DNA from: an uncultured Gammaproteobacteria bacterium
Lineage (GTDB): Bacteria; Patescibacteriota; Microgenomatia; Daviesbacterales; UBA10151
DNA: 45,481 nt
Reading direction: 5' to 3'
NCBI GenBank assembly: GCA_964551255.1
Contig: CAZKAW010000001.1
Location: forward strand, 31,062-76,542
In this document: positions 4,446 through 41,686 of the stretch, in pieces
Layout of the letters: every line of letters begins with the position of its first letter
Position numbering within the stretch: position 1 is the stretch's first letter
Made by a program: the position numbers and the translations under genes
The notes under the pieces: model-generated
Told to the model about the DNA's origin: nothing
Seen by the model: the letters and a program-made list of their open reading frames with translations, nothing else
Database searches by the model: none

Positions 4446-4448
4446 AAT

Positions 4449-7728: not shown

Positions 7729-9424
7729 TTTTTTTACTTCGGAAAAGTATAACCATAAGTATCAAAACAGAAGCTACAGTTATTATATTACTTATTTTCC
7801 TTACTGGTGTGTCTTCTAAACGCGCCTCAATTTTGTGCCTGCCTTCCGGCACATTAAAAGTTATCAGACCCAGACAATACTCTTGTCCCCGGCAGTCGTC
7901 ATACCAATGATTAACTTTTCCTCCATCAACTCTTACTTCCATCCCCGGAAAATCAAAAAGAGGCAGTCTTATGGTGGCAGTTTTTTTAACATCTATCTCA
8001 CCTTTTTGATAATTACTTCCCTTTTGAAAACTAATAAGATCCGCCTGTCCGTCTAGAGTATCGGGCAGCAGAGGGGCTTTTTTATTTGGCGGGAGTTTAG
8101 CATATACGGGCAAATAATCAAAAATACTGATGGTAAGTTGTTTCTCCCAGTTCTGCCCGGAAAACTTATCGGAATCGGAAATATTAAGCCAGGCCTTGGG
8201 CTGGAAAATGGGAGCGTGTAATATAAACAGTAAGACTATAATAGTTATACCCGAGCCCAAACTTACTTTTTTACCATAACTTTCTATATTATATATGGCA
8301 AAGGCGCCCAAAACGGAAAGAATAAAAGTGCTGTCGGATAAAAACCGCCAGGGAAATTGCAAAAGTGAAAAAGCAGGAATATTTTCCCAAATAAAAGTTG
8401 ACCTTTGATGCAATAAAAAAAGTACTGCTAACTCCAAAACACCCAGCATCAACATTAAACCTGATAGTTCTTTCATCTTTTTAAGATTAAACAAAGCCAG
8501 TACAACAGCCAAAAGCCCCAAAGCCCAGTGAATTATTCCTGTGGATAGTGATAAATCATCATTGGCCCCCAAATATGAAGATCCATACCCAAAATGATTG
8601 GATAAAAATAGTTGCTTTACACTGACAAAATGCTGTCTCCAGTCAAAATACCCTCCTGTTAAAGTTTCCAGATGGACAAATTTTCCTTCAAAAATTACCG
8701 GTATGGTAAAAAAGGAAGCCACCCCCAACCCTAGCAAAAAGGCAAAAAATACTTTTGGAAAAACTTTCCATTTTTTCCAGATTATAATTTGAGATATAGC
8801 CCAAATTAGTGACAGGGGCAGGAAAATAAAAGACATTAGGTTGTGAGTTGTCAAAAGCAAGGCAGTTGATAAAGCAAGCCAAATTAAATATTTTACTTTA
8901 CCCTGATTTATCAGTTGAAAAATTGACCAAAAAATCAGGGGGAAAAATACAAAAGACCAAAATTCGGATAATGCTCCCCTCACGTAAACTTCCGTAGCTT
9001 TATACGGAGCATAGCTGTAAAGCATCGCCCCTACAAAAGCAGGCCAACTGCCAAACATGGCCTTTAAAAAAACAAACATGGTGACAGCAGAAAGCACAAA
9101 GCCCAAAATAAATAAAATCTTAACCGTATCAATAACCTGGATACCCAAAATATTCAGTAAACCCCCCAGATAAAAAATGCTGGGTGGGTAAAAATTAAAT
9201 TGGGGATAGCCATATTGATATCCCATGTCGGGAATCCATCTACAGGGAATTTGTAGATCCGAAAGGCATTTAACCATCTGGTGAACCCTGAAGGCTTGCA
9301 AATCATCCTGCATGGGAAAAAACCCGGGACGAATCAGAGAATAAAAGGTGGGCAAAATTAAAAGCAAAAGCAGAAGAAAAATTTTTAGCATCTTAAGGTA
9401 GTACTTGATATAAAACCGTGGCAT
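7712..9424 (-). CDS. Polytopic membrane protein, putative GT-C-type glycosyltransferase (paralog P4)
   Basis: 570 aa. Motifs: MQDD..IPCRWIPD..YGYPQFNFY, YVRGALSE, FGYGSS, QFPWRFL, FDFPGMEVRVDG plus terminal TM. The ATG at 9424 has a GGAGGG Shine-Dalgarno (9433-9438, minus strand) 8 nt upstream. An alternative ATG at 9391 would remove the 32-nt overlap with the upstream gene. Confidence 0.55.
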   Translation of the reverse strand: MPRFYIKYYLKMLKIFLLLLLLILPTFYSLIRPGFFPMQDDLQAFRVHQMVKCLSDLQIPCRWIPDMGYQYGYPQFNFYPPSIFYLGGLLNILGIQVIDTVKILFILGFVLSAVTMFVFLKAMFGSWPAFVGAMLYSYAPYKATEVYVRGALSEFWSFVFFPLIFWSIFQLINQGKVKYLIWLALSTALLLTTHNLMSFIFLPLSLIWAISQIIIWKKWKVFPKVFFAFLLGLGVASFFTIPVIFEGKFVHLETLTGGYFDWRQHFVSVKQLFLSNHFGYGSSYLGANDDLSLSTGIIHWALGLLAVVLALFNLKKMKELSGLMLMLGVLELAVLFLLHQRSTFIWENIPAFSLLQFPWRFLSDSTFILSVLGAFAIYNIESYGKKVSLGSGITIIVLLFILHAPIFQPKAWLNISDSDKFSGQNWEKQLTISIFDYLPVYAKLPPNKKAPLLPDTLDGQADLISFQKGSNYQKGEIDVKKTATIRLPLFDFPGMEVRVDGGKVNHWYDDCRGQEYCLGLITFNVPEGRHKIEARLEDTPVRKISNIITVASVLILMVILFRSKKNEKFT

Positions 9425-10871
9425 CCCCTTTACCCTCCAAAGGCTTTGCTTTAGGAAACTCCATAATCACTTTGACCCCTTCGGCCACACCTTCCAAGTT
9501 GTTTTTATTGCCCACAAAATAAACAGTCTGATCTTTGGTTGACATCCTTATTTGAGCGGAAATGGTGGCGTGACTTCCGGTAATGGCAATATGGCTTTTA
9601 TCAAGATAAATATAGAGTCCGTCCGGCAGTGTTCCAAAAAAGCCCTCTGTACCAACCAGGATGGATTTTCCGCTAGCCTCTTGTTTTAAAAACCGGGCAA
9701 TTTCTTTTAAACCATAACCTGCAGTCCACTGCTCAAAATACCCTTTTCTTTCTTCAGAAGGTAAAGAGGAGGGAGGGGGATTTGTCAAAAGCTGATAATT
9801 AAAAAGGATTGACGGGACAATCAAAATAATTGTAAGAAAAAACATTGAGAACTTATTTGAAATTTTGTATACCCCGTATCCTGCCATAACCAAAAACAAC
9901 GGGATAGAGGGAAACAGGTATCTGGCTGTAAAAGTCCTGAGAAATGTCATATTTAAAAGCAAAGGGACAAGGGCCCAAAGCAAAATTACCCAACCCAATC
10001 TATTCTTTTCCCTAATTATCTTTATTAACCCGATCACCCCAACTATTATGACGGGCCAGGTTATTAGCCTGGGAAACCAATCCGAGATATCTCTAAGGTG
10101 GGGGATAAAAGGATCAAGTGGTCTTCCTGCAAGTTCCATGGGGGAAAAAACATAATCCGTGTTTCTTGAAGAAAGCAGGTGAAAATTAGGACCCAATCTT
10201 AAAAGGTTATACATTACTAAAGCTATGCCAATTGAAACTCCCCAAAAAAGAAATAATTTTAAAAGATTGTTTTTATCACTTCTGTCTCTTTTATAAACCA
10301 GTGCCGAGAGGGGTATTAGAAACAAGTTAACTACAGCCGGTGTTTTGGTAAGCCATCCTCCCCCCAAAATAAATCCTAAAATAAAAGCCAGATCCAACCT
10401 GGGAAATTTGGCAAGCCAGACAGCAAAAAAGAGTGCCCATACGCTAAAAGCCGACAACATGGAGTCAACCAAAGCCATCCGGTCAAAAAAAACAGTGTAG
10501 GGAATAACAGTGTATAGAAGCGCTGCCCAAAAGCCTGTCCTTTTCCCTCCCAATCTACTGCCCAAAGCAAAAACTCCGGCTAAGGTCATAAGGCCTGACA
10601 AAACAGATAAAAACCGGCCGGCAAAAAGAGGGTCTTCAAAAACTTTAAAAAGCGGCATCATTGTCCACATAAATAAAGGGGTTTTGCCGTCGGATAAGGG
10701 TAAAAACCGCAGTGTTGGCTCGCTTTTCATTACCTGAGCCCATCTTATATAAATAGCCTCATCAGCAAAAATAGGCTGAAGGGTCAAGTTAGGAATTCTT
10801 AATATCAGATAGGCTGCCAAAATAATTAAGAAAAGAAAAATCTCCAGCTTTCTTTTTATGAGGAAACCCAT
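9393..10871 (-). CDS. ArnT/PMT-family (GT39/GT83-like) GT-C glycosyltransferase
   Basis: 492 aa. The first loop FADEAIYIRWA..GKTPLFMW matches the DE-x-x-Y plus K-x-P-L-x-x-W pattern of ArnT/PMT_2 enzymes. Multi-pass N-terminal part followed by a C-terminal soluble domain. Confidence 0.65.
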   Translation of the reverse strand: MGFLIKRKLEIFLFLIILAAYLILRIPNLTLQPIFADEAIYIRWAQVMKSEPTLRFLPLSDGKTPLFMWTMMPLFKVFEDPLFAGRFLSVLSGLMTLAGVFALGSRLGGKRTGFWAALLYTVIPYTVFFDRMALVDSMLSAFSVWALFFAVWLAKFPRLDLAFILGFILGGGWLTKTPAVVNLFLIPLSALVYKRDRSDKNNLLKLFLFWGVSIGIALVMYNLLRLGPNFHLLSSRNTDYVFSPMELAGRPLDPFIPHLRDISDWFPRLITWPVIIVGVIGLIKIIREKNRLGWVILLWALVPLLLNMTFLRTFTARYLFPSIPLFLVMAGYGVYKISNKFSMFFLTIILIVPSILFNYQLLTNPPPSSLPSEERKGYFEQWTAGYGLKEIARFLKQEASGKSILVGTEGFFGTLPDGLYIYLDKSHIAITGSHATISAQIRMSTKDQTVYFVGNKNNLEGVAEGVKVIMEFPKAKPLEGKGDATVLYQVLP

Positions 10872-10931
10872 TACTTAATTGTACTTCCCTAATCACCTCT
10901 CAGCAAGCTTTCAGTAAGAATTATGCAAATT

Positions 10932-12401
10932 TTAAGCTATCCGTACAGGGGTATCCAAATGACCCCGTCTTACCATATACCTTGCCGAACCGGTTAAGAT
11001 GGGAGAAGCCGGGGATGGTTCCAAGATAAAGTTGCTTTCAAACCTTTGTATCCCATAAGCATCCGTGACTATTACCCCTTCAGGTCTTTCCAAAATCATC
11101 CTCTTTGTGCCGTTTGCCCAACCTACCACAGCTTCTATTCCGTCCGTTCGTTTCAGTTTAACCAGTGTATAATCCTTTGAGCTCAGTATTGTTATATCTT
11201 CAAGCTGTGCCAATAATCTAGCATTATATTCCCATGCATCAAAGGTAGGCTTTAAAACCCACTTACCATCTTTAAAAGAAGCCAGGGATTGATAGTCCTG
11301 CCCCATGCTGTGAAAGTTATACCAAAATACCTTGCTCACCTTTTTGGAACCTATGGCAAGCATCAGCATGGCCGGCAGGTGACACTCAGCCAGCTGGTCT
11401 AAACGAAATTGAGTTTGGGGATGGTCTGCCCCGGGAAACCCTACCTCCCTCAATATCAGCTCTTTTCCCTCCCAACCATTCCTCTGCATAACCTGATAAG
11501 TCTGATCAATCAAGGCAGAAATTCCTAAAACAGGCTTTGTCTCTCTTTTATAATCTCTGACCGCTTCAATATCATTAACCGGGGGATAGAGGTGTAAAGT
11601 AATAAAATCGAAATGATCAGCCGGAATCCCCATAAGTGCAACTTCCTGTCTTAATCCCGGATAATCATAATAGGCAGGACCCGCCGGGGAAAACTTCACA
11701 CCGGGAAGTGCTTCTTGAGCACGGCAGGCATTAGCATCTCTCAATGCATCCTCCTGCAAACCCGGCCTATTTCTCCACTCATGTGCCCAGGGCAGATCAA
11801 ACTCATTACCATATGTTTGATGTCTAAAGCCAAAGCTATATAAGTCTCTTACAACAGTACATATCCGCTCCGGTCTGTGCTTATAATTTAATTCTATAAC
11901 CACTATAGCTTCAGCCTGTCTTCCTAAAGCATCCGGACTGGTAAGCCAGGTGGCTGTATTGAAAAACTCCTGCATCATCTCTAAATATGTTTCACCCTCT
12001 CGAGGAGGCCTGACGAGTTTTTTCTCAGAGGCGGAATTAGTGGTGGAGGGAAACCAAAACCTGTGATTTTGTAGTCTATTCCTATCAGGATCTACGGCAA
12101 AAGAGGTGTGAATTTTTTCCGGTATATCATACCCCCAAAGGTGGGCGTTAACCAAACCCACCGGAGATAAACAAAGCGGAGTAACCCTGATTTGATCCAA
12201 AGGGGGTGTATAGGGACCTTTGTTTCTAACAGCAGGAGTCCGGTTTGCCAAAAAATCAGCAATGGCTTCTTCTCTGCTTTTGGGGGGAAGTTCGCTGGAG
12301 GATCCTAAAGCTACATCCAGCATAGCCAGAGTCCCTCCAAATGAAAAGGCGGTCTTTACAAGAAAATCCCGACGGGTAAGCCGGGACAGAACTCGCTCCA
12401 T
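10932..12401 (-). CDS. Secreted (Tat signal) clan GH-A-like glycoside hydrolase
   Basis: 489 aa. The N-terminus LTRRDFLVKTAFSFGGTLAMLDVALG fits the twin-arginine consensus S/T-R-R-x-F-L-K. YGNEFDL (NE acid/base-like) and LILREVGFPG (nucleophile-like Glu) lie about 120 residues apart, as in (beta/alpha)8 clan A hydrolases. G+C is clearly higher than in the neighbouring genes. Confidence 0.55.
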   Translation of the reverse strand: MERVLSRLTRRDFLVKTAFSFGGTLAMLDVALGSSSELPPKSREEAIADFLANRTPAVRNKGPYTPPLDQIRVTPLCLSPVGLVNAHLWGYDIPEKIHTSFAVDPDRNRLQNHRFWFPSTTNSASEKKLVRPPREGETYLEMMQEFFNTATWLTSPDALGRQAEAIVVIELNYKHRPERICTVVRDLYSFGFRHQTYGNEFDLPWAHEWRNRPGLQEDALRDANACRAQEALPGVKFSPAGPAYYDYPGLRQEVALMGIPADHFDFITLHLYPPVNDIEAVRDYKRETKPVLGISALIDQTYQVMQRNGWEGKELILREVGFPGADHPQTQFRLDQLAECHLPAMLMLAIGSKKVSKVFWYNFHSMGQDYQSLASFKDGKWVLKPTFDAWEYNARLLAQLEDITILSSKDYTLVKLKRTDGIEAVVGWANGTKRMILERPEGVIVTDAYGIQRFESNFILEPSPASPILTGSARYMVRRGHLDTPVRIA

Positions 12402-12415
12402 ATTTATTTTTGCAG

Positions 12416-13777
12416 TTATCGTGATCTAATTAGGATTTTATCACGATCTGCTTTTAAAATCTCATACCTATTTTTATCTATTTTTGCCTGATCCAACCTC
12501 CACTGGTAAGTAATAAGATAGAGGGTTTCCTTGCTTTCAAATATGGGTATTAAATGATTGGCCCTGATTTGATTTACTTTTTTATTTGAATAAAAAGAGG
12601 CGCTTGGTAAAAACTCTCCGTCAATATAAAAATCACCCGGATATTTTCCCGCCTCTCTGGATAAAATCTCCTCATCGGAAATAAAGGAAGGTATATCAAT
12701 AAACTCCACCCAGGATCTTTGGAGTTGTATTAAAGATAAATAAAAAGAGAGGCCCAAAATAATTAGAGTCATAACTGCCTTATTTTTAATTATTTTTGTA
12801 AGAAAAACTGACAAAAAGCCAAACAATGATAAAAGCATAATCGGGTGAAGGGGTATCAGGTGCCAAATTTGCCCTTTTTGGGAAAAAATAAAAGGAATAA
12901 AGAAAACAAGGAAAAAGACAGATAAAATCAAAAACCTTCTCTGTCTTAAGAATAATCCTATGAGGACAGAAACTATTCCCGGCCAAAACCACCTGCCAAT
13001 TCCCAAATATAAATAATCTTTCATCAGTTTTAAATTTTGCCAGTAATCTGTTTCCACCTTGACCCCGGGAAGACCAATTGAAAAAAACCTGGGCAGAAAA
13101 TTGGAATTAATCATTTGCTGGGAAAAAACCCACCCCAGAAATACTGCTGCTACCAGCCCCAAAGGCCAAACTAGCTTTTTAAGTTTTACCTTTTTCCAAA
13201 AAATTATTATTAGAGAAGGGATAATAACAAAAGGCACCAATGTTTTTATTAAAAGAAGCAGAGCCATACTGATTGAAAAGGGAAGTTGAAACTTTTTATC
13301 TTTAACACTCTTTAAAGCCAGGAGCAGGGTTAGCAAAAAGAAAAAAGTTAAAGGCACATCTAAATTACCGGACCTGGCTCTGAACAAAAACCAATATGAG
13401 GAAGCTAAAGACAGGGCTGAGGCAAACCCAACTGTTTTATTAAAAAGCTCTTTACCTAAAAAATAAATTACTATTAAGCTTAAAAATCCCAATATAGCTG
13501 AGGGAAGTCTCACCGCCAGATTACTATCCCCCATTATTTTTAAACTTAGAGCCATCATCCAGTACCCGGCAGGCGGGTGGTCGCTATAGAAGCTTCCATT
13601 CCATTTTAAATTTATCAAGTCCCCGCTTTTTATAATTTCCTTGGCCACACTGCCATACCAGGCTTCATCAAATGCTACCAGTGACGATTGACCGAGTTTA
13701 TAAAAAAATAAAGGGGTAAGGGTGGTAAGCAGTAAAATAATCAGCAAGCTTTTTCTTTCAAACAGTTTTGCCATCAA
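12416..13777 (-). CDS. ArnT/PMT-family (GT39/GT83-like) GT-C glycosyltransferase
   Basis: 453 aa. First loop AFDEAWYGSVAKEI..SDHPPAGYWMMAL (DE-x-x-Y and PP-x-x-YW motifs). Multi-pass, with a C-terminal soluble domain. Confidence 0.7.
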   Translation of the reverse strand: MMAKLFERKSLLIILLLTTLTPLFFYKLGQSSLVAFDEAWYGSVAKEIIKSGDLINLKWNGSFYSDHPPAGYWMMALSLKIMGDSNLAVRLPSAILGFLSLIVIYFLGKELFNKTVGFASALSLASSYWFLFRARSGNLDVPLTFFFLLTLLLALKSVKDKKFQLPFSISMALLLLIKTLVPFVIIPSLIIIFWKKVKLKKLVWPLGLVAAVFLGWVFSQQMINSNFLPRFFSIGLPGVKVETDYWQNLKLMKDYLYLGIGRWFWPGIVSVLIGLFLRQRRFLILSVFFLVFFIPFIFSQKGQIWHLIPLHPIMLLSLFGFLSVFLTKIIKNKAVMTLIILGLSFYLSLIQLQRSWVEFIDIPSFISDEEILSREAGKYPGDFYIDGEFLPSASFYSNKKVNQIRANHLIPIFESKETLYLITYQWRLDQAKIDKNRYEILKADRDKILIRSR

Positions 13778-14508
13778 TACTTCCCGCTTAAATCATTCCA
13801 CCTGATCCGAAGCATGTCATAAATTGCCGCTGCCGCATCCTTGATAACTTGCACTCTTTCCGTATCCACGTAATTCCACTCCACCCCGACTTCGGCAATT
13901 TTAAACCCGTATTTTTTGGCCAAGTATAAAACTTCCACATCAAAGCCGGCGTTTACCGCTCCACCCTTAAAATGTACTACCCCCCACTCTCCCTTAATTT
14001 TGGGAATAATTACCTCCAGGCTTTTTTTATTGAAAGCTTTAAAACCACACTGGCTATCTTTAAAGGGCAATCCCAAAATAATGTTTCTTAAAACGGAAAA
14101 TCCCCAGGCAGACAGTTTTCTGATTAGAGGTGCCCCCCTTCTGCCTTGTCTTGAGCCGATCACAATATCAAAACCGTTTTTGAATTCAGGCAAAAATTTA
14201 TCAAGCTGGTCAATCGGAGTAGCTTGATCCATGTCTGTAAATAAAACAATTTTGCCTCTTGCTGCCATCATCCCATCCATCACTGCTATGGCTTTACCTC
14301 CATGTTGGTCTTGAATTAGTCTAAATTTGGGGTTTTTGGAAATATAGTTTTTTATTAACTCCACCGAATGATCTGTTGAGCCATCATCAACAATAATCAC
14401 TTCATATTCCAGATTTTTCCTGTCTAAAAATTTATCTACTTTGTCTAAAACGCCTTTGCCAAGATTTTTTTGCTCGTTATAAGAAGGTATCACCACTGAT
14501 ATTTCCAT
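13774..14508 (-). CDS. GT2 polyprenyl-phosphate sugar synthase (DPM1/ALG5/GtrB-like)
   Basis: 244 aa. Motifs ISVVIPSYNE, VIIVDDGSTD, FTDMDQATP. Soluble and single-domain. 4-nt overlap with the downstream ArnT-like gene. Confidence 0.8.
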   Translation of the reverse strand: MEISVVIPSYNEQKNLGKGVLDKVDKFLDRKNLEYEVIIVDDGSTDHSVELIKNYISKNPKFRLIQDQHGGKAIAVMDGMMAARGKIVLFTDMDQATPIDQLDKFLPEFKNGFDIVIGSRQGRRGAPLIRKLSAWGFSVLRNIILGLPFKDSQCGFKAFNKKSLEVIIPKIKGEWGVVHFKGGAVNAGFDVEVLYLAKKYGFKIAEVGVEWNYVDTERVQVIKDAAAAIYDMLRIRWNDLSGKY

Positions 14509-14517
14509 AATTTTCCT

Positions 14518-16674
14518 TTACGGTTTACCGCTTGGGTTTGGTATTAGTTTATATATTTTTACTCCAAATCTAGCTTCCATCCATTGAATCCTTGACCAGC
14601 CAAAACCGGCAATTTCATACTTGGCATTGTGGGTAGGATCACATACCTCATCTTCACAAACCACCAACAGTTGACCTGTTTTATCAAAAGGCACTTGCTT
14701 GGGTTTGTGACCAAAAGCCTCCAGATAAAACTGATAGGCCAAATCATAATTGTTTTTGGAAATTAAGGCAAAATTAAATTCTCTGCCTTCGCTTTTTTCT
14801 ATTATAAAGCGGGCTATATCCTGAGTTTTCTTAAGTTGATTATTAGGCGCAAAATTGAGCGGATTTTTTTGCAAATTAACTAAGGTTAAACTTACTACTA
14901 AACCGGTCAAAGCAATTACTGACAAACGCCTTCCCGCATCCGATGTGGGAATACGGACCAGGCGGGTTAAAGAACCAAAGAGCAAAAACGGCACGGGGTT
15001 TAAAAAACCTAAATAATGATCATAAATATCCTGCTTTAGAAAAGACAGCCCAAAAACTCCCGCCAAAAGCCAAACCCCCAAAACCCTTCTTGGCCAGCCG
15101 GGGAAAAACAAGGCTGCCAGTATCAAAGCAGAAACTAGAATAGACAAATACAAGTTTTCTCCTGCTATATACCTGCCAATTAAATCCTGAGTAAAGATTT
15201 CAGGAATCCTGGCTAAATTTTCCCCAAAACTAACCTTTAGCGCCCCGCCTTCTGTCAAAAGAGTGGTGATTGCTCTGTAGTTTAAGTAGTTATGCCGAAG
15301 GTCAAACCAAACCAGGGGAGACATCAGCACCAAAAAAGCCGCTATTGCCAAAACAGTTCCCCGTATCACATTTTTTTTATTCTTTCCAAAAATTATTTCA
15401 TTTACCCAAACGGCAGTTATAATAGGGATTAAAATTAAGGCCAGATAATGCATCTGCAGAGCAAAAGCCAAAGAGACTCCGCTTAAAACAAACCATAAAA
15501 AATTACCACCCCGGTGAAGTTTATATAGCCCCAGGAAAATTATCAAAGTAAAAAAAGGCAGGGGATTGGGGTTCCAAGAAAAACGGCTATAGTTGATCGT
15601 TACAGTAGATAAAGCGTATAAAAAAGCCGACAAGACTCCCGCCCAAGCTCCAAACCAGGTCTTTCCCAAATAATAAATCAACCCCACTGTTGCTACTCCA
15701 ATAACAGCCACCATGACTGCAGCCGATACAGGGTTAAAGCCGGTAAGTACCATTGGCACAAACATCATGTAATAGTAAAGCGGTCCCAGATAAATATTTC
15801 CTACAGAAGTCGGCGGACCAATTAGCGGCAGGTGTTTCTCAACCCAGATATTTTTGACAATTGCAGCATCCCTGCCCTCATCTCCCAGAAAAATCATATA
15901 TTCATCCAGTTTATAGAAGCGCAAAAAAGAAGCCAAAAGCAATATCCCTAAAATAGCTATAAATGCTCCCTTGTGTTGTTTTAGTTCCCACCAAAGCTTA
16001 ACTAAATCCAAGTATGATTTGATAATTACATTCAAACTGGCCCCGGTTGGTTTGCCGCAGAGACGCGGATAGTGGTTTACTCCCACCTCGGCAATTCTAA
16101 ATCCTCCCTTTTTGGCCTTGATGGCAATTTCGGCGTTAATCATTGCTCCTCTTTGAGACTCAAGATGGGGAATTTCTTCCAAGACTTTTCTTTTGACCAT
16201 CTTAAAACCGCAATCCACATCTTTTAAAGTTAATCTGAAAAAAGCAAGCAGTGTCAGCTTCCAACCTTGCTTAAAAACAGTTCTGATAAAAGGATCCCTT
16301 CTTTTAATTCTATAGCCTATTACCAAATCCGCCTCTTTAATTTTTTCCAAAAACTTTGTCACTTCTGAAAAATCAAATTGCCTGTCTCCGTCTGTGTAAA
16401 CAATGGTGTCAAATTTAGCATTATAAAAACCGCTCTTTAAAGCTTCTCCGTAACCTAAGTTTTTAGGATGATGAATCACTCTGATTAAAGAATTCTGTTT
16501 GGATAAATTATCAGCAATCTCACCGGTTTTATCTGTTGAGCCGTCATCAACAATAATGATTTCATACTTTAGCTTAAGCTTTTTTAAAACCTTTTCTGCT
16601 TTTTTGACAATGTTTTCAACATTGCCTTCTTCATTAATACAGGGGAAAAATACCGACAAGGAGTCTATATTCAT
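14518..16674 (-). CDS. Fusion protein: N-terminal GT2 polyprenyl-phosphate sugar synthase plus C-terminal GT-C-like polytopic domain
   Basis: 718 aa. Residues 1 to about 235 are GT2 (IIIVDDGSTDKTGE, YTDGDRQF). The remainder is multi-pass, with FLGDEGRDAAIV..LIGPPTSVGNIYLGPLYYY and FDLRHNY motifs shared with the five proteins at 34062-43228. Confidence 0.7.
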   Translation of the reverse strand: MNIDSLSVFFPCINEEGNVENIVKKAEKVLKKLKLKYEIIIVDDGSTDKTGEIADNLSKQNSLIRVIHHPKNLGYGEALKSGFYNAKFDTIVYTDGDRQFDFSEVTKFLEKIKEADLVIGYRIKRRDPFIRTVFKQGWKLTLLAFFRLTLKDVDCGFKMVKRKVLEEIPHLESQRGAMINAEIAIKAKKGGFRIAEVGVNHYPRLCGKPTGASLNVIIKSYLDLVKLWWELKQHKGAFIAILGILLLASFLRFYKLDEYMIFLGDEGRDAAIVKNIWVEKHLPLIGPPTSVGNIYLGPLYYYMMFVPMVLTGFNPVSAAVMVAVIGVATVGLIYYLGKTWFGAWAGVLSAFLYALSTVTINYSRFSWNPNPLPFFTLIIFLGLYKLHRGGNFLWFVLSGVSLAFALQMHYLALILIPIITAVWVNEIIFGKNKKNVIRGTVLAIAAFLVLMSPLVWFDLRHNYLNYRAITTLLTEGGALKVSFGENLARIPEIFTQDLIGRYIAGENLYLSILVSALILAALFFPGWPRRVLGVWLLAGVFGLSFLKQDIYDHYLGFLNPVPFLLFGSLTRLVRIPTSDAGRRLSVIALTGLVVSLTLVNLQKNPLNFAPNNQLKKTQDIARFIIEKSEGREFNFALISKNNYDLAYQFYLEAFGHKPKQVPFDKTGQLLVVCEDEVCDPTHNAKYEIAGFGWSRIQWMEARFGVKIYKLIPNPSGKP

Positions 16675-16706
16675 ACTCCTGAGTGTAGCATAATTTTATC
16701 CCAATC

Positions 16707-16715
16707 TGCTATGAT
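16707..16715 (+). promoter_or_regulatory. Extended -10 element (TGcTATGAT) ending 6 nt before the ATG at 16722; candidate leaderless start
   Basis: TG at 16707-16708 and TATGAT at 16710-16715, then 6 nt to the ATG. No Shine-Dalgarno and no clear -35. Confidence 0.3.
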
Positions 16716-16721
16716 TTAACT

Positions 16722-17882
16722 ATGAAAAAGATGAATGACTTTGTTCTTCTTATTACTTTGACAGTATTTCTTACTTTTATTATCTGGTTACCTCACCTTT
16801 TGGCTGCACCGAATTTCTGGGGGCTATCATTCCAAAACGGATTTAACACCATTTACAGAAATTTTGACGGTTTAGAGTATATAGTCATTGCCAAAACATA
16901 TTATCAACCGGGTTTAATTGCTTCCTTACCTCTGTCACTTCCGGCCGGCTATTTTGCTTCACACTTTCCCGGCTATTCCCTCTTAATAAATGTCTTTGCT
17001 CCGCTTTTGGGGTATCTTAAGTCAATGCTGTTTGTATCTTTGTTTTCCACCATCCTGGCAGCCTGCATCTTTTATAAACTGGTTAAAGATTTCAATTTAA
17101 GCACTCACCCGCTTTTTCTTTCTATCCTCTTTTTAATACTGCCCGCCCGCTGGGTGATCGTTCACTCTGTTGGTTCTTCCGAACCCTTATTTATTTTATT
17201 GATTATTTTGTCTGTCTACTTTTTTATGAAATATGAGACAGAGCAAAAATTTCAATTTATTCTTCTGACCGGAGTCTTCGGACTATTTGCTCAATTAACA
17301 AGACCTCCGGGGATTCTTCTTTTTATAGCCTTATCTTTGTACCTAGTCTGGAAAATTCTAAAAACAAGAATGCGCTTTGTTTCGATTATTCGAATAATTG
17401 GTCTAAACACTCCGCTGCTTTTGATACCGGCCGGACTTTTGTTAATTTTTTACTGGTATGCCTTAACTTACGGAAATTTTTTTGCCTATTTCCAAAGCGG
17501 TGACAATATCCACTTGAATTTCCCCCCATTTGGGGTTTTTAATAAAAACCAATTTTGGGTAGGAGATATTTGGCTGGAAGATTTAATCTATATTTTTATT
17601 TTGGGATTTTTGGGAGCAGTCTCACTTTTTAAAAGGGGCCTTTATCCCATGGCCTATTTTGTTTTAATATACTTTATTGCCTCAACCTTAATAGCTCACA
17701 GGGATATCTCAAGGTATATTCTACCAGTTACTCCTTTTGTCCTGATTGCTTTTGAAAAAGTTTTAACAAGTAAAGAATTTAAAATCATCCTGCCGATTAT
17801 TCTTTTGGTTATTTACTTGTATGCCCAAAATTTTATTTTGGCCAATACCGCACCCATCCCAAATCTCCAAATTTTTAATTAA
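16722..17882 (+). CDS. Polytopic membrane protein, possible GT-C mannosyltransferase (PIG-V/GT76-like motif)
   Basis: 386 aa and multi-pass. The first loop FDGLEYIVIAKTYY resembles the (W/F)D-x-x-x-(F/Y)-x-x-IA-x-x-GY motif of PIG-V-type enzymes; this is recall only. It is the only plus-strand gene in the left cluster. Confidence 0.4.
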   Translation: MKKMNDFVLLITLTVFLTFIIWLPHLLAAPNFWGLSFQNGFNTIYRNFDGLEYIVIAKTYYQPGLIASLPLSLPAGYFASHFPGYSLLINVFAPLLGYLKSMLFVSLFSTILAACIFYKLVKDFNLSTHPLFLSILFLILPARWVIVHSVGSSEPLFILLIILSVYFFMKYETEQKFQFILLTGVFGLFAQLTRPPGILLFIALSLYLVWKILKTRMRFVSIIRIIGLNTPLLLIPAGLLLIFYWYALTYGNFFAYFQSGDNIHLNFPPFGVFNKNQFWVGDIWLEDLIYIFILGFLGAVSLFKRGLYPMAYFVLIYFIASTLIAHRDISRYILPVTPFVLIAFEKVLTSKEFKIILPIILLVIYLYAQNFILANTAPIPNLQIFN

Positions 17883-19063
17883 TCTTCCTGATGCTTCCAG
17901 GTAACAAAGTGGTTAACCGTAAAATTCCAAAGCATCACCGGCGGGATGGTAGCGAAAAAGTAAAAGTTATTGTAAGCAATCGGCCTTCCCAAAACAGTGA
18001 TAAACCCGTCACCATAAGTTGAATGAAGCAGCTTAACAATTAATACTCCTATAACTAAACCTCCTAAACTGACCAGGTTGAAAATACTCAGTTTTTGCCA
18101 AAAGTTGGTTTTAGTTTTTCTATATTTAAAAGTCCAGAAGTTATTAAGAAAAAAATTATTTATTATGGCTATCTCTGTTGAGAAACCTTTACTGGTAGCA
18201 GGAGGCAGTCCAAACAGATTAATAAATAATTTATAAAAGAAAAAGTCAACTAAAGTCCCCACAAATCCTACCAGGCCAAACTTAACAGGTGTTTTAGCTC
18301 TTCTGCTTAACTTATATAGCGGAAAATCTATTCCCCAGTTTTTTAATCTGACGTCTAAACAATAGGCAATTACATCATATGTATAATTAAAAACTTTATT
18401 TTTGGAATAACCCTCCAACCTGTTTTTAAATATCAGAGGGACTTCTTTATATTTGGCTCCGACCAAAATAGCCTCATGCAAAAAAGCCGGCTGGACAATA
18501 AAAGTTTTTTCTCTCCAGGGAAGTCTGGCTAAATTGATTTTTTTAAAGAGGGCCGGAGTAAAAGCTCTGGCGGAATTTGTTACCTCTTTGATATCCCAAG
18601 GTCCTACAGTTAATCTAAAAAAGAGGGAAGCTCCGTAGGTAAAAATTCTTCTTAAAAAAGACAGCTGGTTTTTACCTCCCTCAACAAATCTGGAACCAAT
18701 GGCTAAAGTGTAACCCTGATCTATCGTTTCAACCAACCTCACTAAGACATCTTCAATCACCTGGCCATCAGCGTCCAGTTGGGCCAAAATATCCGGGTGA
18801 ATTTTTTCCAAAGCATATTTGTGCCCCATTATTAAACCTACTCCCAGGCCTGGGTCAACTTTAATAAAATGGATTCTTTTGTTTTTACTTGCCAATTTCC
18901 CGGCTAACTCCCGGGTACCGTCTGTAGAGCGGATATCATCGGCTATAACCAGATGAATTTCCCAATCGGGAAGTTTTTTTTGCTGCTTTAAAACTCTGTC
19001 TACAGTTTTTTCAAGATTAGCTCTTTCGTTATATGTAGGTAAAACAACAGAAACCCGTTTCAT
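17879..19063 (-). CDS. Fusion protein: GT2 polyprenyl-phosphate sugar synthase (DPM1/GtrB-like) plus C-terminal GtrA-like membrane domain
   Basis: 394 aa. N-terminal motifs VSVVLPTYNE, QLDADGQ. The C-terminal ~130 aa has 4 TM helices with VKFGLVGFVGTLVDFFFY..IINNFFLNNFWTFKYR, typical of the GtrA family. Confidence 0.75.
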   Translation of the reverse strand: MKRVSVVLPTYNERANLEKTVDRVLKQQKKLPDWEIHLVIADDIRSTDGTRELAGKLASKNKRIHFIKVDPGLGVGLIMGHKYALEKIHPDILAQLDADGQVIEDVLVRLVETIDQGYTLAIGSRFVEGGKNQLSFLRRIFTYGASLFFRLTVGPWDIKEVTNSARAFTPALFKKINLARLPWREKTFIVQPAFLHEAILVGAKYKEVPLIFKNRLEGYSKNKVFNYTYDVIAYCLDVRLKNWGIDFPLYKLSRRAKTPVKFGLVGFVGTLVDFFFYKLFINLFGLPPATSKGFSTEIAIINNFFLNNFWTFKYRKTKTNFWQKLSIFNLVSLGGLVIGVLIVKLLHSTYGDGFITVLGRPIAYNNFYFFATIPPVMLWNFTVNHFVTWKHQED

Positions 19064-20073
19064 TAGGAGAATTTAGCCAGATCCGAATGCACCATGATTT
19101 TAACCAACTCTTTAAATTTGGTCTTCGGCTCCCAGTTTAAAATCCTTTTGGCCTTGGCATAGTCACCTTGTAGCGGCCCTGTATGGACAGGTGGAATGAA
19201 GGAAAGGTCACTTACTACATAGTCTTTCCAGTCAAGTCCCACTACCGAAAAGGCCTCTTTAGCAAAATCTTCGACTGTATGTATCTCACCGGTAGCAATG
19301 ACAAAATTATCCGCCTTTTCTTGTTGCAACATTAACCACATGGCCTCCACATAATCGGGAGCATACCCCCAATCTCTTTTGGCATTCAAGTCTCCTAATT
19401 TTAATTTACCCTCTTGCACAATCGGCTCACCAAACTCATTTAATGGAGTACCCTCCCTTTTATTATTTTTAATTACTGCCACTGCCACCGAAATTTTTCT
19501 GGTAATAAAATTCATCCCGCGTCTTGGACTTTCATGGTTAAAAAGAATTCCGCAACTGATAAACTGCGGTGCTTTTTTATCCTGTCTGGCAATATTCCCC
19601 ATCCAATGGGCATAAACCTTGGCTGCAGCATAAGGATTGGCCGGGATAAGCGGAGTGTCCTCATCCTGAGGAACCTGTTTGGGAGCACCATACATTTCCG
19701 ATGTGGAAGCTTGGTAAATCTTGGCATTTGGCACAACCTGCCTGGCTCTTTCAAACACCTGCACTGCCCCTATGCCGGTAATCATCATAGTTCCGATCGG
19801 ATCAAAAAAAGAAGCCAGAGGCGAAGATTGGGCAGCCAAATTGTATATTTCATCCGGTTTAAAGTCATAAAGGGCCAGGGCAATGGATTCCGGGGAAGAG
19901 AGATCTCCGTGGTAAATTTTAATTTCCGATTTGAGGTGTTCAATATTGTTGGGGTCATTGGCAGCTGTCCGGCGAACTAAACCTGCCACTTCGTAATTTT
20001 TTTTCAAGAGTAATTCTGTTAAATATGAACCATCCTGACCTGAAATCCCGGTGATAAATGCTTTTTTTGCCAT
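19063..20073 (-). CDS. gmd: GDP-mannose 4,6-dehydratase
   Basis: 336 aa. KKAFITGISGQDGSYLTELLLKKNYEV is the classic Gmd N-terminus. Also has STSEMYG and the Y-x-x-x-K region (YAAAKVYA). Confidence 0.9.
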   Translation of the reverse strand: MAKKAFITGISGQDGSYLTELLLKKNYEVAGLVRRTAANDPNNIEHLKSEIKIYHGDLSSPESIALALYDFKPDEIYNLAAQSSPLASFFDPIGTMMITGIGAVQVFERARQVVPNAKIYQASTSEMYGAPKQVPQDEDTPLIPANPYAAAKVYAHWMGNIARQDKKAPQFISCGILFNHESPRRGMNFITRKISVAVAVIKNNKREGTPLNEFGEPIVQEGKLKLGDLNAKRDWGYAPDYVEAMWLMLQQEKADNFVIATGEIHTVEDFAKEAFSVVGLDWKDYVVSDLSFIPPVHTGPLQGDYAKAKRILNWEPKTKFKELVKIMVHSDLAKFS

Positions 20074-20098
20074 ATTTTGTCTTACTATAGCGAAGTTA

Positions 20099-20989
20099 TT
20101 ACCCTTGAGTCAACTCCTGTTTAAAAATTATTAGGCCTTCTTCAACCGTATGCAAAATTTGGTCTCCAAACTCCCTCTCAAACTTAGTTGGATTAAGCCA
20201 GGAATATTTTAGCAGCTTGGCTTTTTTGATTTCATTATATTCATCCAAAGTTGTAGAACCTGTTAAAGAATAATCCAGTTGAAATGTTTCGGCAATAGTT
20301 TTTACCAGCTCTAAAGGGGAAACAGAATCCGTACTGCTGACATGATAAATCCCTCCCGGGCGTTTTTCCAAAAAGTTGCTTAAAGCACGGGCAATATCAT
20401 TGACCAAGGTAGGGGTAATTCTTTGATCTTCTATTGCTTTAATCTGGTTTTTTAATTTAAGTTGCTGCAAAAAAAATCTGGCCACATCATTTTTTTTCTC
20501 ATATCTGGCAGAATAAGGCATGGATATCCGCACCACCAGACAATTACCCCCGATTTCCAAAACAAACTGTTCCCCAAAAAGTTTGGTTTGCCCATACCAG
20601 TTAATGGGGTTTGGTTTATCCTCTTCGGTATAGGGACTTTCCTCCTTGGTACCGTCAAATACATATTCTGTGGAAATATGGATTAAATATTTATTTTCCT
20701 CTTTACAAACCTCTGAAACATTTTTGGCACCAGTTGCATTTATTCGAAAAACTATTCCCTCCTCATGATCTTTTTCCTCTTCTGCTTTTTGTACATCGGT
20801 GTATGCAGCAAAGTTGATTACTGCCTCAGGGTTAAAACTTTTGACTGCCTCAAGCAGATAGCCTTTATTTAAAATATCTACCTCGGAAGCCGGGGGAGAT
20901 TTAATATCAAAATCTTGACTGTAAAGCTCAATAAATTTTGAACCCACCAGCCCGCTGCCACCAAAAAGTAAGACCTTTTTTTTATTCAT
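20099..20989 (-). CDS. rfbD: dTDP-4-dehydrorhamnose reductase (RmlD family)
   Basis: 296 aa. Motifs LLFGGSGLVG, AAYTDVQKAEEE, STEYVFDG, YGQTKLFGE, DQRITPT parallel the RmlD motifs. Confidence 0.8.
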   Translation of the reverse strand: MNKKKVLLFGGSGLVGSKFIELYSQDFDIKSPPASEVDILNKGYLLEAVKSFNPEAVINFAAYTDVQKAEEEKDHEEGIVFRINATGAKNVSEVCKEENKYLIHISTEYVFDGTKEESPYTEEDKPNPINWYGQTKLFGEQFVLEIGGNCLVVRISMPYSARYEKKNDVARFFLQQLKLKNQIKAIEDQRITPTLVNDIARALSNFLEKRPGGIYHVSSTDSVSPLELVKTIAETFQLDYSLTGSTTLDEYNEIKKAKLLKYSWLNPTKFEREFGDQILHTVEEGLIIFKQELTQG

Positions 20990-21537
20990 TTGAATTTTTC
21001 AGGAAACAACTGCCTTAATTTGGGATTATTTTTATCTCTTTCGGAAATAACCGGATTTTTAACCGGCCAGTTAATTGCCAAATCTGGATCATCAAAAGCA
21101 ATGGCTCTGGTGTCGGTTCCGTCATAGTAAGCATCAACCAAATATATATAATCCACGGTTTTCTCACCGGTGACACAAAGTGAGTTAGCCAGTCCCTTGG
21201 GGATAAACAGTCCAATTCTATTTTCATCATTTACACTAAAGGTTTCCACTTTGGCAAAAGTAGGGGAATTGGACCTGATATCAATTATAGCCAGAAAAAC
21301 CTCTCCGTTCACCGGATAAATAACCTTATTCCAACCTTCGGCGTGAATTCCTCTGATTACTCCCGGTTTTGAGTAAGAGTGGTTCAGTTGTACACCGTCA
21401 AATTTTATCCCCGCTAAAGCTTCCAGCTCATCTTTGCGAAACAATTCTCTGAAAAATCCCCTGCTGTCTTCAAAAACAGGCCTTTCCAAAATCAAAAGCC
21501 CCGGGATGGAAGTTTTCTTCACATATTTATGATCCAT
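20986..21537 (-). CDS. rfbC: dTDP-4-dehydrorhamnose 3,5-epimerase
   Basis: Contains IPGLLILERPVFEDSRGFFRELF and RGIHAE, typical of RmlC. The start is ambiguous: ATG at 21537 or GTG at 21552 (the ORF-track start). Confidence 0.85.
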   Translation of the reverse strand: MDHKYVKKTSIPGLLILERPVFEDSRGFFRELFRKDELEALAGIKFDGVQLNHSYSKPGVIRGIHAEGWNKVIYPVNGEVFLAIIDIRSNSPTFAKVETFSVNDENRIGLFIPKGLANSLCVTGEKTVDYIYLVDAYYDGTDTRAIAFDDPDLAINWPVKNPVISERDKNNPKLRQLFPEKFK

Positions 21538-22531
21538 ATTGTTTTTGAGCACTCCTGTCTATATTAGGTCTTCCCTGTTTTAAGGGTTTCCACCACCATT
21601 CATTTGCTTTATACCACTCCACTGTTTTTTCCAACCATTCATCAAACTTATGTTTAGGCTCCCAGCCAAGCTGCCTAACCTTACTGCCATCATTGGCGTA
21701 ACGAAAGTCATGCCCTAGTCTGTGCGGCACGTACTCAATCATAGACTCATCCATTCCCAAGTGGTTTAAAATAGCTCTGGTAACTTCTATATTTAGCCGT
21801 TCTTCTCCTTGAACTAAATAAGTCTCGCCTGCTTGCCCTTTTGCCAAAACTGTATCTATTGCGCAGGCATGATCCACAACATGAAGCCATTCTCTGATAT
21901 TTTCTCCTCTTCCCATCAGGGGAACCTTTTTACCTTCTAAAAGATTGGTCATAAATCTGGGGATTAATTTTTCAGGGTCCTGGTATGGGCCGTAATTATT
22001 GGCACAATTACTAATGGTGACCGGCAAACCATAGGTTTTAAAGTAAGCTCTCACCAAATGATCAGAACCTGCCTTGGAAGCAGAATAAGGTGTACGTGGA
22101 TCATACGGGGTGTTGGGAGCAAAAGGCGGTTCATCCGATTTCAAATCACCATATACTTCATCTGTGGAAACATGATGAAATCTTTTCACCTTGGTATCCA
22201 GCGCGGCATCAAGTAAAACTGCAGTGCCTAAAACATTGGTTTTGACAAAAACTAGCGGATCTACTACTGATCTGTCCACATGCGACTCAGCAGCAAAGTG
22301 AACCACCACATCCACCTCCTGCATTGCCTGTTTAACAACTTCAGGGTCTGTGATATCCCCTTTTATAAATCTATATCTTGAATCTCCTTCTACATCTTTA
22401 AGAGATTCTAAGTGCCCGGCATATGTCAATGCATCTAAATTAACCACTTGATCATCAGAATGGTGTTCCAGCCAATAGCGGATAAAATTAGAACCAATAA
22501 AACCGGCCCCTCCAGTTACCAGTAATTTCAT
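21527..22531 (-). CDS. rfbB: dTDP-glucose 4,6-dehydratase
   Basis: MKLLVTGGAGFIGSNF at the ATG at 22531. The first 16 codons of the longer ORF-track version overlap rfbA and are unlikely to be real. Also has YSASKAGSDHLVRAY (Y-x-x-x-K). Confidence 0.9.
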   Translation of the reverse strand: MKLLVTGGAGFIGSNFIRYWLEHHSDDQVVNLDALTYAGHLESLKDVEGDSRYRFIKGDITDPEVVKQAMQEVDVVVHFAAESHVDRSVVDPLVFVKTNVLGTAVLLDAALDTKVKRFHHVSTDEVYGDLKSDEPPFAPNTPYDPRTPYSASKAGSDHLVRAYFKTYGLPVTISNCANNYGPYQDPEKLIPRFMTNLLEGKKVPLMGRGENIREWLHVVDHACAIDTVLAKGQAGETYLVQGEERLNIEVTRAILNHLGMDESMIEYVPHRLGHDFRYANDGSKVRQLGWEPKHKFDEWLEKTVEWYKANEWWWKPLKQGRPNIDRSAQKQYGS

Positions 22532-22547
22532 ACTTTCTGCTCTTCCA

Positions 22548-23630
22548 TCAAATCTGTATTTTACACTTTTCTCCCACAAAAAGTGAGGTGGTAGCTCCCC
22601 TGCCGTTTTTGGAAGTTACCTCACTGTCCGTTCCAATCAAACTGTTATCCACCGGATGAATTTTAACATCCAAAATTTTTACCCCGCTCATTAAAACACT
22701 ATTTTTAACCGTACTGCCTACTATCTCACAATTATCAGCTACAGAGGTAAGAGAACCTACCTCTGAATCGGTAATTACCACATTATCTCCTATAACAGTT
22801 GGCCCCAGGATTTTGGAATTTACTATGGTGCATCTCCTGCCAATGGAAACCTCTCCTGCTATTTTACTATCCCGGCTTATCTCAGACTCCAGCTTACTTA
22901 CCAGCTTATTTTTTAGTAAATACGCATTAGCCTCAATCCAATCATCAAACTTACCCGGATCCAGCCAGGTACCTTTATATTCCACTACATCTACCCTATA
23001 TTTGTGGTCAATTAACCACTGAAAAGCAGTGGGAATTTCATACTCGCCGCGTCCGGAAGGCTTGATTGCATTTTCTCCTTTGAAACACTTAAAAAAGTTG
23101 CTGTCGGCAAAATATAAACCGGGAATGGCAAAATCATGAGGGGGATTTTCCGGCTTTTCTACATATTGAAGCAGTCTTCCTTCTTTGTCAAAAAACGGCA
23201 CCCCCAATCTTTTGTTTTCCCGGTGGTGAACCATGGTCACCATCGCATTTGGCTTTTTATCCATAAAATAATTTACAACCTTTTCAATTCCATCTGCAAA
23301 AATATTATCCCCGAGGTGAAAAACAAAGGGAGATCCGTTTAAAAACTGCTCGCAAACTTGGACAATGTTAGCAAGCCCGATTGGTTTCTCCTGCAAGACA
23401 TACTCAAAGTATACTCCCCATCTTGAACCGTCACCCAGCATATTTTTTACCTCCTCCAAACCCTGGGGATTATAGGTGATGGCAATATCTTTGATGCCGG
23501 CACGAGCCACTGTTTCAATGGGATAAAAAATTAAAGGTTTGTTGGCAACAGGAATGAAATGTTTGTTGGTGGAAAAAGTTAAGGGGCGCATTCTGGTTCC
23601 CCTTCCACCGGTTGGTATAATTGCCTTCAT
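22548..23630 (-). CDS. rfbA: Glucose-1-phosphate thymidylyltransferase, long form with C-terminal left-handed beta-helix
   Basis: 360 aa. MKAIIPTGGRGTRMRPLT (the G-x-G-T-R-x-x-P-x-T nucleotidyltransferase motif). The C-terminal ~110 aa has hexapeptide-like repeats (IGDNVVITDSEVGSLTSVADNCEIVGSTV). Confidence 0.8.
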   Translation of the reverse strand: MKAIIPTGGRGTRMRPLTFSTNKHFIPVANKPLIFYPIETVARAGIKDIAITYNPQGLEEVKNMLGDGSRWGVYFEYVLQEKPIGLANIVQVCEQFLNGSPFVFHLGDNIFADGIEKVVNYFMDKKPNAMVTMVHHRENKRLGVPFFDKEGRLLQYVEKPENPPHDFAIPGLYFADSNFFKCFKGENAIKPSGRGEYEIPTAFQWLIDHKYRVDVVEYKGTWLDPGKFDDWIEANAYLLKNKLVSKLESEISRDSKIAGEVSIGRRCTIVNSKILGPTVIGDNVVITDSEVGSLTSVADNCEIVGSTVKNSVLMSGVKILDVKIHPVDNSLIGTDSEVTSKNGRGATTSLFVGEKCKIQI

Positions 23631-23654
23631 TTTTTGGACGATTCTACCATTATA

Positions 23655-36316: not shown

Positions 36317-36335
36317 CTCAGTTGATAGTTTAGCA

Positions 36336-36341
36336 TATAAT
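36336..36341 (+). promoter_or_regulatory. Consensus TATAAT -10 box 7 nt upstream of the ATG at 36349; candidate leaderless start
   Basis: TATAAT at 36336-36341, then taaacag, then ATG. No Shine-Dalgarno and no convincing -35. Confidence 0.3.
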
Positions 36342-36348
36342 TAAACAG

Positions 36349-37836: not shown

Positions 37837-37837
37837 C

Positions 37838-41676: not shown

Positions 41677-41686
41677 CTTAATTAAT

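Follow-up and report, generated by a model that had tools for sequence, protein, structure and literature searches.

The stretch of DNA analysed here (the window) spans 45,481 nucleotides (nt), C1:31062-76542 of an 889-kb genome assembly of 56 contigs that is 97% complete, and belongs to a bacterium whose close protein relatives carry the label Candidatus Daviesbacteria (Microgenomates group, Patescibacteria). Between positions 12416 and 23630 the window holds a cluster of genes for glycosyltransferases and for enzymes of nucleotide-sugar synthesis. The subject of this report is one of them, a gene for a protein of 718 amino acids (aa) in which a family 2 glycosyltransferase (GT2) is followed, in a single uninterrupted reading frame, by a membrane domain of the GT-C glycosyltransferase type. 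Domains were called with Pfam and NCBIfam, and structures were compared with the Protein Data Bank (PDB) by Foldseek. The following features lie at the locus (TM, transmembrane).

14518-16674, reverse strand: 718-aa GT2-GT-C fusion (P0001), with Glycos_transf_2, PMT_2 and PMT
15979-16674, reverse strand: GT2 domain of the fusion, residues 1-232 (Pfam, PDB sequence matches, Foldseek)
14869-15969, reverse strand: GT-C TM domain of the fusion, residues 236-602 (PMT_2/PMT; Foldseek to ArnT and AglB)
14518-14868, reverse strand: C-terminal soluble alpha/beta domain of the fusion, residues 603-718, stop codon included (secondary structure in the AlphaFold2 model)
13774-14508, reverse strand: stand-alone GT2 of 244 aa (P0003), without a hydrophobic segment (Glycos_transf_2 1.5e-29)
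12416-13777, reverse strand: GT-C of 453 aa, ArnT/PMT-like (PMT_2 3.6e-23, PMT 6.7e-7, STT3 4.6e-6)
16722-17882, forward strand: putative minimal, TM-only GT-C of 386 aa (P0004; PMT_2 2.5e-5, just under the cut-off)
17879-19063, reverse strand: 394-aa GT2-GtrA protein (P0002), with Glycos_transf_2 and GtrA_DPMS_TM
18314-19063, reverse strand: GT2 domain of P0002, residues 1 to about 250 (Glycos_transf_2 2.1e-21)
17897-18283, reverse strand: GtrA/DPMS-type 4-TM domain of P0002, residues 261-389 (GtrA_DPMS_TM 6.3e-21)
19063-23630, reverse strand: rmlA(long), rmlB, rmlC, rmlD and a gmd-like dehydratase gene (NCBIfam)

Three of these open reading frames, the two fusions and the stand-alone GT2, had been named in the original prediction, and all three turned out to be present at the positions and with the architectures that it gave. 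It overlooked, however, a fourth gene, the conserved TM-only GT-C at 16722-17882 on the forward strand. A scan of positions 12000-24200 for promoters and terminators was uninformative, the promoter-like sites being found at the level of shuffled sequence.

The N-terminal half of the 718-aa protein matches Glycos_transf_2 at residues 7-168 (Pfam, E = 1.2e-27). Its best sequence matches in the PDB are DPMS (2.2e-15), ArnC (2e-13) and GtrB (7e-13), and these matches go beyond the GT-A core and reach the interface-helix region (query residues 6-252 against 5mlz, 5-226 against ArnC). An AlphaFold2 model of the whole protein, built on 32 fused homologues, has a pLDDT of 89.1 and a pTM of 0.83; with its N-terminal domain as the query, Foldseek returns ArnC (1.4e-12) and also DPMS and GtrB (E of about 1e-12). 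Statements on invariant residues of the fused proteins refer to an alignment of 32 fused homologues. In it the motifs VDDGSTD and TDGD are conserved, D44, D48, D97, R122, D127 and R204 are invariant, and D95, which lies in TDGD, is nearly invariant. The GT2 domain ends with an amphipathic helix (residues 214-231). A membrane anchor of its own after the GT2 is found neither here nor in the 244-aa protein, the GT2 part of both being free of hydrophobic segments. In this the two differ from GtrB and ArnC, in which a TM hairpin comes after the catalytic domain, and from Pyrococcus furiosus DPMS with its four TM segments; the 394-aa protein does have such an anchor, its GtrA_DPMS_TM domain.

The GT2 domains of the two fusions had been described as GtrB-like, and this description stands: all three GT2 domains are closest by sequence to DPMS, ArnC and GtrB, and the one in the 718-aa protein is so by fold as well. 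We predict that the latter is a GT-A-fold polyprenyl-phosphate glycosyltransferase of the GtrB/ArnC/DPMS type, which would use a lipid acceptor. Alternatively, it could be an ordinary cytoplasmic GT2 that adds to a glycan carried by a lipid or a protein and does not make a polyprenyl-phosphate monosaccharide, in which case the fusion would combine two consecutive steps of unrelated chemistry. The NCBIfam results leave some room for this. The matches of the locus GT2s are to PgfS (the top match of both the fusion GT2 and the stand-alone 244-aa GT2), ArnC, AglJ, PpgS and a dolichyl-phosphate hexose transferase, all of them far below the equivalog cut-offs, and the list includes the non-synthase GT2s PgaC, TuaG and EpsD. 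However, whether sequence or fold is compared, the best matches are in each case the three polyprenyl-phosphate glycosyltransferases of defined structure. The size (about 232 aa), the amphipathic helix at the C-terminus and the GT-C as an obligate partner are also in keeping with a synthase. We consider the alternative quite improbable.

The C-terminal half of the fusion matches PMT_2 at residues 298-456 (2e-10) and PMT at residues 245-457 (2.8e-6), both above the cut-off. The best Foldseek match of this domain is ArnT (5f15, E = 2.3e-9, TMt 0.56), and archaeal AglB is found too. The original prediction had allowed that the C-terminal domains of the two fusions might fail to match GT-C or GtrA models; both were found to match. 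In the model, the helix 214-231 is followed by a three-residue break and by TM1 (235-253), and about five residues join the GT2 domain (1-232) to the GT-C domain (from residue 236). The loop after TM1 carries the motif FLGDEGRD, whose D265, G267, R268 and D269 do not vary among the orthologues, whether fused or split; the same is true of SWNPN (366-370) and H409. The acidic residues of FLGDEGRD are predicted, by position only, to be equivalent to the catalytic Asp of ArnT/PMT. The soluble alpha/beta domain 603-718 contains a nearly invariant cysteine pair (C673, C678). If the topology is ArnT-like, with the N-terminus inside and the C-terminus outside, this domain would be extracytoplasmic, and it is a candidate acceptor-binding domain. 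As a member of its family, the GT-C half is expected to take a polyprenyl-phosphate-linked sugar on the outer face of the membrane. It also matches the NCBIfam model TIGR03663, named 'flippase activity-associated protein Agl23', with an E value of 1.1e-12, and two neighbouring GT-Cs score 37.3 and 24.4 bits against the same model. Membership of the fusion GT-C in the Agl23 family was rejected, its score being 47.7 bits against a curated cut-off of 126.25 bits.

A search of 5.8 billion proteins returned more than 1100 homologues of the 718-aa protein; the best 120 clusters are all full-length, carry both Pfam domains and show 62-72% identity. The fused and split states were surveyed in 201 species genomes of the same class as the window, in 179 of which the fused protein has a strong match (E <= 1e-40). 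The junction is free of stops over residues 1-718 in 9 of the 12 genomes of the window's own family (f1) and in 8 of the 11 genomes of a second family (f5). The uninterrupted fused frame is thus present in 17 species genomes of the class, and in three of these the junction was read directly. The claim that the fusion exists without a stop or frameshift is borne out by the occurrence of the same frame in these 17 genomes and in the 120 best homologue clusters. Because orthologues in sister genomes share this frame, an artefact confined to the present assembly is very unlikely.

Most members of the class encode the two halves as separate neighbouring genes. The GT2 gene immediately precedes the GT-C gene, and the two overlap by up to 25 nt or lie up to 32 nt apart; the adjacent split pair was confirmed in genomes that were read directly. 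The split GT2 proteins stop exactly at the position of P0001 residue 232 or so (...KLWWELK), and the split GT-Cs start with a short basic tail, after which comes TM1. Split forms are found in the window's own family too (G274 and G372). In a further member of this family (G450) and in two other genomes (G395 and G428) the halves lie in one frame and are parted by TAG, TAG-ATG and TAA-ATG, respectively. Each of these three is one point mutation away from fusion, since only a stop codon separates the halves. G428 was considered as a representative of a third fused family, but its 767-aa 'open frame' actually contains an in-frame TAA followed by ATG, and it is split.

The linker between the halves is 5-8 residues long in family f1 (for example ELKQHKGAF in the window) and about 19 residues long in family f5 (for example QLKKEILVERGLAVFPWEM). 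In a maximum-likelihood tree of 72 GT-C domains, the window's fused clade is monophyletic, with a support of 95 in the Shimodaira-Hasegawa-like approximate likelihood ratio test (SH-aLRT), and branches from among split forms. Fused proteins appear in scattered places on this tree; parsimony requires 8 changes between the two states, and well-supported branches make at least 5 of them unavoidable. These comparisons indicate that the 718-aa fusion arose by the joining of adjacent genes, and did so more than once. Outside the class, proteins of 736-737 aa that combine GT2 and PMT_2 were found in two other Patescibacteria families (G018 and G033); these fusions are independent of the window's. As for the claim that a fusion of GT2 to GT-C is unusual, it needs to be qualified: the fusion is lineage-specific, and it derives from a pair that is split but adjacent in most relatives.

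Other domain combinations were encountered in the course of these searches. One metagenome representative at 50% identity (P0234, 923 aa, a singleton on a 40-kb contig) is a triple fusion of GT2, GtrA and PMT_2 and so unites the three components of a Gtr-type system, and another metagenome singleton (P0245, 673 aa) has the reversed order, PMT_2 and then GT2; both may be assembly errors. In a different Patescibacteria family, an open reading frame at 1-2133 on the reverse strand of locus L023 (G077:C13) encodes more than 711 aa with PMT_2 and a C-terminal calcineurin-like phosphoesterase domain (Metallophos).

These data bear on a rival explanation, namely that the fusion is functionally meaningless, being a neutral deletion or frameshift or else a sequencing or assembly error, and that the halves work independently. 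In the split pairs, the two genes share 4-25 nt or are in the same frame and parted by a single stop, so that one minor mutation, or an erroneous indel, could join them. In addition, several of the fused representatives from metagenomes are singletons on short contigs, and some of these could be erroneous; the two family-level clades cannot be. Against this explanation, 17 independent species genomes from two families and more than 120 clusters with 62-72% identity have preserved the fused frame, which indicates that the joined form has long been under purifying selection. The fusion has recurred with different linkers. The split genes are adjacent in nearly all genomes where the pair is split, and this argues for co-function of the halves. 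We judge it extremely unlikely that the fusion has no meaning.

We think that the 718-aa protein is probably the single-chain form of a two-gene GT2/GT-C unit that is nearly universal in the class, and that it makes as well as uses a lipid-linked sugar. On the inner side of the membrane, the cytoplasmic GT2 would load polyprenyl phosphate with the sugar of a nucleotide sugar. Its amphipathic helix would lead, within about 5 residues, into TM1 of the GT-C, and the outward-facing part of the GT-C, with the FLGDEGRD loop and the soluble domain, would take the sugar over from the lipid carrier, once this has been flipped, and attach it to an acceptor outside the cytoplasm. The joining of adjacent, translationally coupled genes would fix a 1:1 ratio of the two enzymes, anchor a synthase that lacks TM segments and keep the maker and the user of the lipid-sugar together. 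The recurrence of the fusion suggests that the two halves work as one unit. On this account, the fused GT-C would use what its own GT2 makes. Substrate channelling through the membrane, as proposed in the original prediction, is an inference. Candidates for the flipping itself are the GtrA domain of P0002, which would act in trans, the GT-C bundle and some other protein.

Several observations weigh against this account. A profile of the GT-C domain finds no significant sequence match in the PDB (best E = 0.69); because this search returns no solved structure, the GT-C assignment rests on Pfam and on the fold. None of the locus GT2s reaches an NCBIfam equivalog cut-off, and these matches therefore assign no particular sugar. 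The fusion GT-C half is closer to the genes at 40198-41676 and 36349-37836 than to the 453-aa GT-C next to it. The fusion may serve only to anchor a GT2 that has no TM segments, without any hand-over of substrate. The genome has about 28 GT-C genes and only about six short synthase-like GT2s, and the product of the fusion GT2 may for this reason also feed other GT-Cs.

Another proposal would be that the GT-C half is mainly an anchor and/or a scramblase and not the terminal transferase, and that both fusions of the locus are synthase-flippase units which feed the approximately 27 other GT-Cs. The TIGR03663 match of the GT-C half (1.1e-12) speaks for it, as do the lack of an anchor in the GT2 half and the 28 PMT_2 matches of the genome, which stand against one GtrA domain and about six synthase-like GT2s. 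Purified Agl23 of Haloarcula was shown to translocate a lipid-linked glycan in liposomes (PMC11182771). However, 47.7 bits against 126.25 places the GT-C half outside the Agl23 family. The invariant FLGDEGRD, SWNPN and H409, together with the conserved 115-residue outer domain and its cysteine pair, are what an active transferase that binds an acceptor would be expected to show. The roles of translocator and transferase are, moreover, compatible with each other. This proposal seems to us unlikely.

We give a similarly low probability to a stronger version of the single-unit account, in which the GT2-GT-C unit, whether fused as here or a close pair as in relatives, makes, flips and uses the sugar by itself; the lipid-linked sugar would be made at the base of TM1, conducted along the GT-C bundle, as published for the distantly related Agl23, and used by the same chain without a separate flippase. 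Flipping by the GT-C bundle is only suggested, since the arguments for it are a sub-threshold Agl23 match and the published flippase activity of Agl23 (PMC11182771). If this version holds, the triple fusion P0234 would be a variant with an explicit translocating part.

The two genes downstream of the fusion appear to follow the same logic in unfused form. The TGA stop of the 244-aa GT2 overlaps the start of the 453-aa GT-C (sequence TATTGATGG). The 4-nt overlap given in the original prediction is correct for the TTG start, but amounts to 1 nt (TGATG) if the adjacent ATG is used. Among PDB entries, the 244-aa protein is closest to DPMS (1e-17), GtrB (5.8e-15) and ArnC (1.1e-13), and the 453-aa protein matches the ArnT equivalog NF009784 with an E value of 6.9e-15, below its cut-off. 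In syntenic loci of relatives, a P0003-like GT2 comes after the GT-C. The 244-aa GT2 and the 453-aa GT-C constitute an unfused pair of the kind seen in the fusion. Within the genome, the closest paralogue of the 244-aa GT2 is the GT2 half of the fusion, and vice versa. The possibility that the pair is a tandem duplicate of the fusion was rejected, the GT-C halves not being closest paralogues.

P0004 sits between the two fusion genes and is divergent from P0001, a position that is conserved across the class (loci L002-L009). Its homologues are named 'glycosyltransferase family 39 protein'. The AlphaFold2 model of P0004 is of medium confidence (pLDDT 72.6), and its top 40 Foldseek matches are all of the GT-C fold, mostly GT-C enzymes and a subunit of the glycosylphosphatidylinositol (GPI) transamidase, although they are weak (best E = 1.7e-3). 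We read P0004, from this model, as a probable minimal GT-C that consists of the TM part only.

In the 394-aa protein P0002, Glycos_transf_2 at residues 5-143 is combined with GtrA_DPMS_TM at residues 261-389. Residues 3-345 align with residues 24-340 of Pyrococcus furiosus DPMS (5MLZ), over the catalytic and TM domains, with an E value of 1.8e-29. The protein shows the feature of type III DPMS, a single chain in which a 4-TM GtrA/DPMS domain comes after the GT2, and its homologues bear the NCBI name 'bifunctional glycosyltransferase family 2/GtrA family protein'. It holds the only GtrA domain found in the genome assembly. In a survey of 121 class genomes, 114 have a GtrA domain, usually in one copy; about 108 of the 133 matches lie in frames of at least 318 aa, i.e. 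are fused to a GT2, and most are located within a few kb of the GT2/GT-C unit. The two pairwise fusions do occur side by side, as had been claimed, but the GT2-GtrA one is not unusual, since it has the architecture of the P. furiosus enzyme, a stock NCBI name and the status of a norm in the class. From these similarities, P0002 appears to be an ordinary DPMS-type synthase of an already known architecture.

P0002 is the last gene of a tightly packed same-strand run, rmlA(long)-rmlB-rmlC-rmlD-gmd-like, with overlaps of 1-33 nt. The NCBIfam matches of rmlA_long (8.2e-97) and rmlB (6e-137) are above the cut-off, and those of rmlD (9.6e-62), rmlC (3.4e-40) and gmd (7.8e-95; 317.9 vs. 415 bits) are below it. 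The rml and gmd-like genes are predicted to supply 6-deoxyhexose nucleotide sugars. Because rmlABCD and the gmd-like gene are directly upstream, the sugar handled by P0002 need not be mannose, and there is a hint that this DPMS-like protein may load a 6-deoxyhexose instead.

The order of the genes at the locus is class-wide: GT2-GtrA, then a P0004-like GT-C on the opposite strand, then GT2 and GT-C, then a second GT2 and a second GT-C. In a public Daviesbacteria genome the first three units are consecutive (A3H40_04225, 04230 and 04235). GT-C-type genes occupy positions 1484-13777, 14518-17882 and 34062-43228 of the window, and the open frames of the 28 PMT_2 matches in the 889-kb genome comprise about 14,200 codons, or about 4.8% of the genome. 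This large share of a reduced genome suggests extensive glycan assembly outside the cell, and the repertoire suggests that these ultrasmall bacteria build much of their surface glycan there.

Several other features of the window and the assembly were recorded. Four tandem PTPS_related/YfhO-like paralogues at 1484-9424 come on top of the 28 PMT_2 matches. At the end of the GT-C array, a MOP/Wzx-type flippase is encoded at 4-1482 on the reverse strand (Polysacc_synt_3 1e-50; NF007773 4.7e-43, below the cut-off), and the locus may on this account also handle polyprenyl-diphosphate-linked oligosaccharides. A 489-aa open reading frame inside the array (10932-12401, reverse strand) has no Pfam or NCBIfam match, and the G+C content is locally higher (0.424) at 10001-12000. 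UppS (PF01255) was not found in this assembly; it is present in 86 of the 101 class genomes surveyed for it, including four of the same family, and its lack here is, by this comparison, most likely an assembly gap. Scarce or scavenged polyprenol is therefore not supported as a reason for the fusion.

A recurrent natural fusion is strong genomic evidence for the pairing of a particular lipid-sugar synthase with a particular GT-C; where a genome has dozens of GT-C paralogues, it is otherwise difficult to tell which enzymes belong together. A chain of 718 residues that contains both ends of the lipid-carrier cycle is also convenient for cryo-electron microscopy (cryo-EM) and for reconstitution in liposomes of the passage from the inner to the outer face. 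Should the same chain also flip its product, it would offer a one-polypeptide system in which to study how polyprenyl-phosphate monosaccharides cross membranes. To our knowledge, the membrane-crossing step is still unassigned for dolichyl-phosphate mannose (Dol-P-Man) and dolichyl-phosphate glucose (Dol-P-Glc) in eukaryotes.

Among known systems, ArnC and ArnT of the lipid A aminoarabinose pathway are the best structural matches of the N- and C-terminal halves of the fusion, and the division of labour would be alike, with undecaprenyl phosphate charged by a GT2 on the inside and the sugar passed on by a GT-C on the outside. In the Arn pathway the two enzymes are separate polypeptides, ArnC carries TM helices of its own at the C-terminus, and a deformylase and ArnE/F, a flippase of the small multidrug resistance (SMR) type, act between them. 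In contrast, the system described here is one chain, its GT2 lacks a TM hairpin, no protein of the ArnE/F type was found, and the NCBIfam scores of the fusion are far below the ArnC and ArnT cut-offs.

The Gtr-type three-component systems (GtrA/GtrB/GtrC, CsbB/GtcA/YfhO and PgfS/PgfM1/PgfM2), which the original prediction had used as its frame, are a reasonable comparison, since the three domain types are present and clustered in one locus and GtrB is among the best PDB matches of the locus GT2s. These systems are composed of three separate proteins, whereas here the domains are fused pairwise, no stand-alone GtrA is found in the genome, and there are several GT2s and many GT-Cs instead of one of each. 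The fused form is not mentioned in the papers on three-component systems that were searched.

P. furiosus DPMS (5MLZ/5MM0/5MM1/9EP0) shares the architecture of the 394-aa protein, a GT2 with a 4-TM GtrA/DPMS domain; the latter protein differs in being bacterial and in being encoded directly downstream of rmlABCD and the gmd-like gene. A precedent for a synthase fused to a membrane protein is Ppm1 (Rv2051c) of Mycobacterium tuberculosis, a polyprenyl-phosphate mannose synthase joined to a polytopic domain that is a separate gene in related species. The membrane partner of Ppm1 is, however, an Lnt-like acyltransferase domain and not a GT-C that consumes the donor.

In Haloarcula hispanica, a hexose-phosphate-dolichol synthase (Agl22) is paired with a GT-C-like membrane protein of TIGR03663, Agl23, which is a putative hexose-phosphate-dolichol flippase working with Agl22 (PMC11182771). 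This pair resembles the two halves of the fusion, but it is archaeal, its members are separate proteins, Agl23 is described as a flippase and not as a transferase, and the score of the fusion for this family is below the cut-off. The nearest published cases of fusion are the natural GacJ-GacI fusions and the engineered WpsB-WpsA fusion (PMC10821137). A search of the open literature found no description of the GT2-GT-C fused architecture or of a GT-C expansion in Patescibacteria. Sequences of the fusion have been available in public databases since about 2016, under no more specific label than 'hypothetical protein' or 'glycosyltransferase'. In general, the 718-aa fusion is a compact version of a well-known glycosylation scheme rather than a new kind of system.

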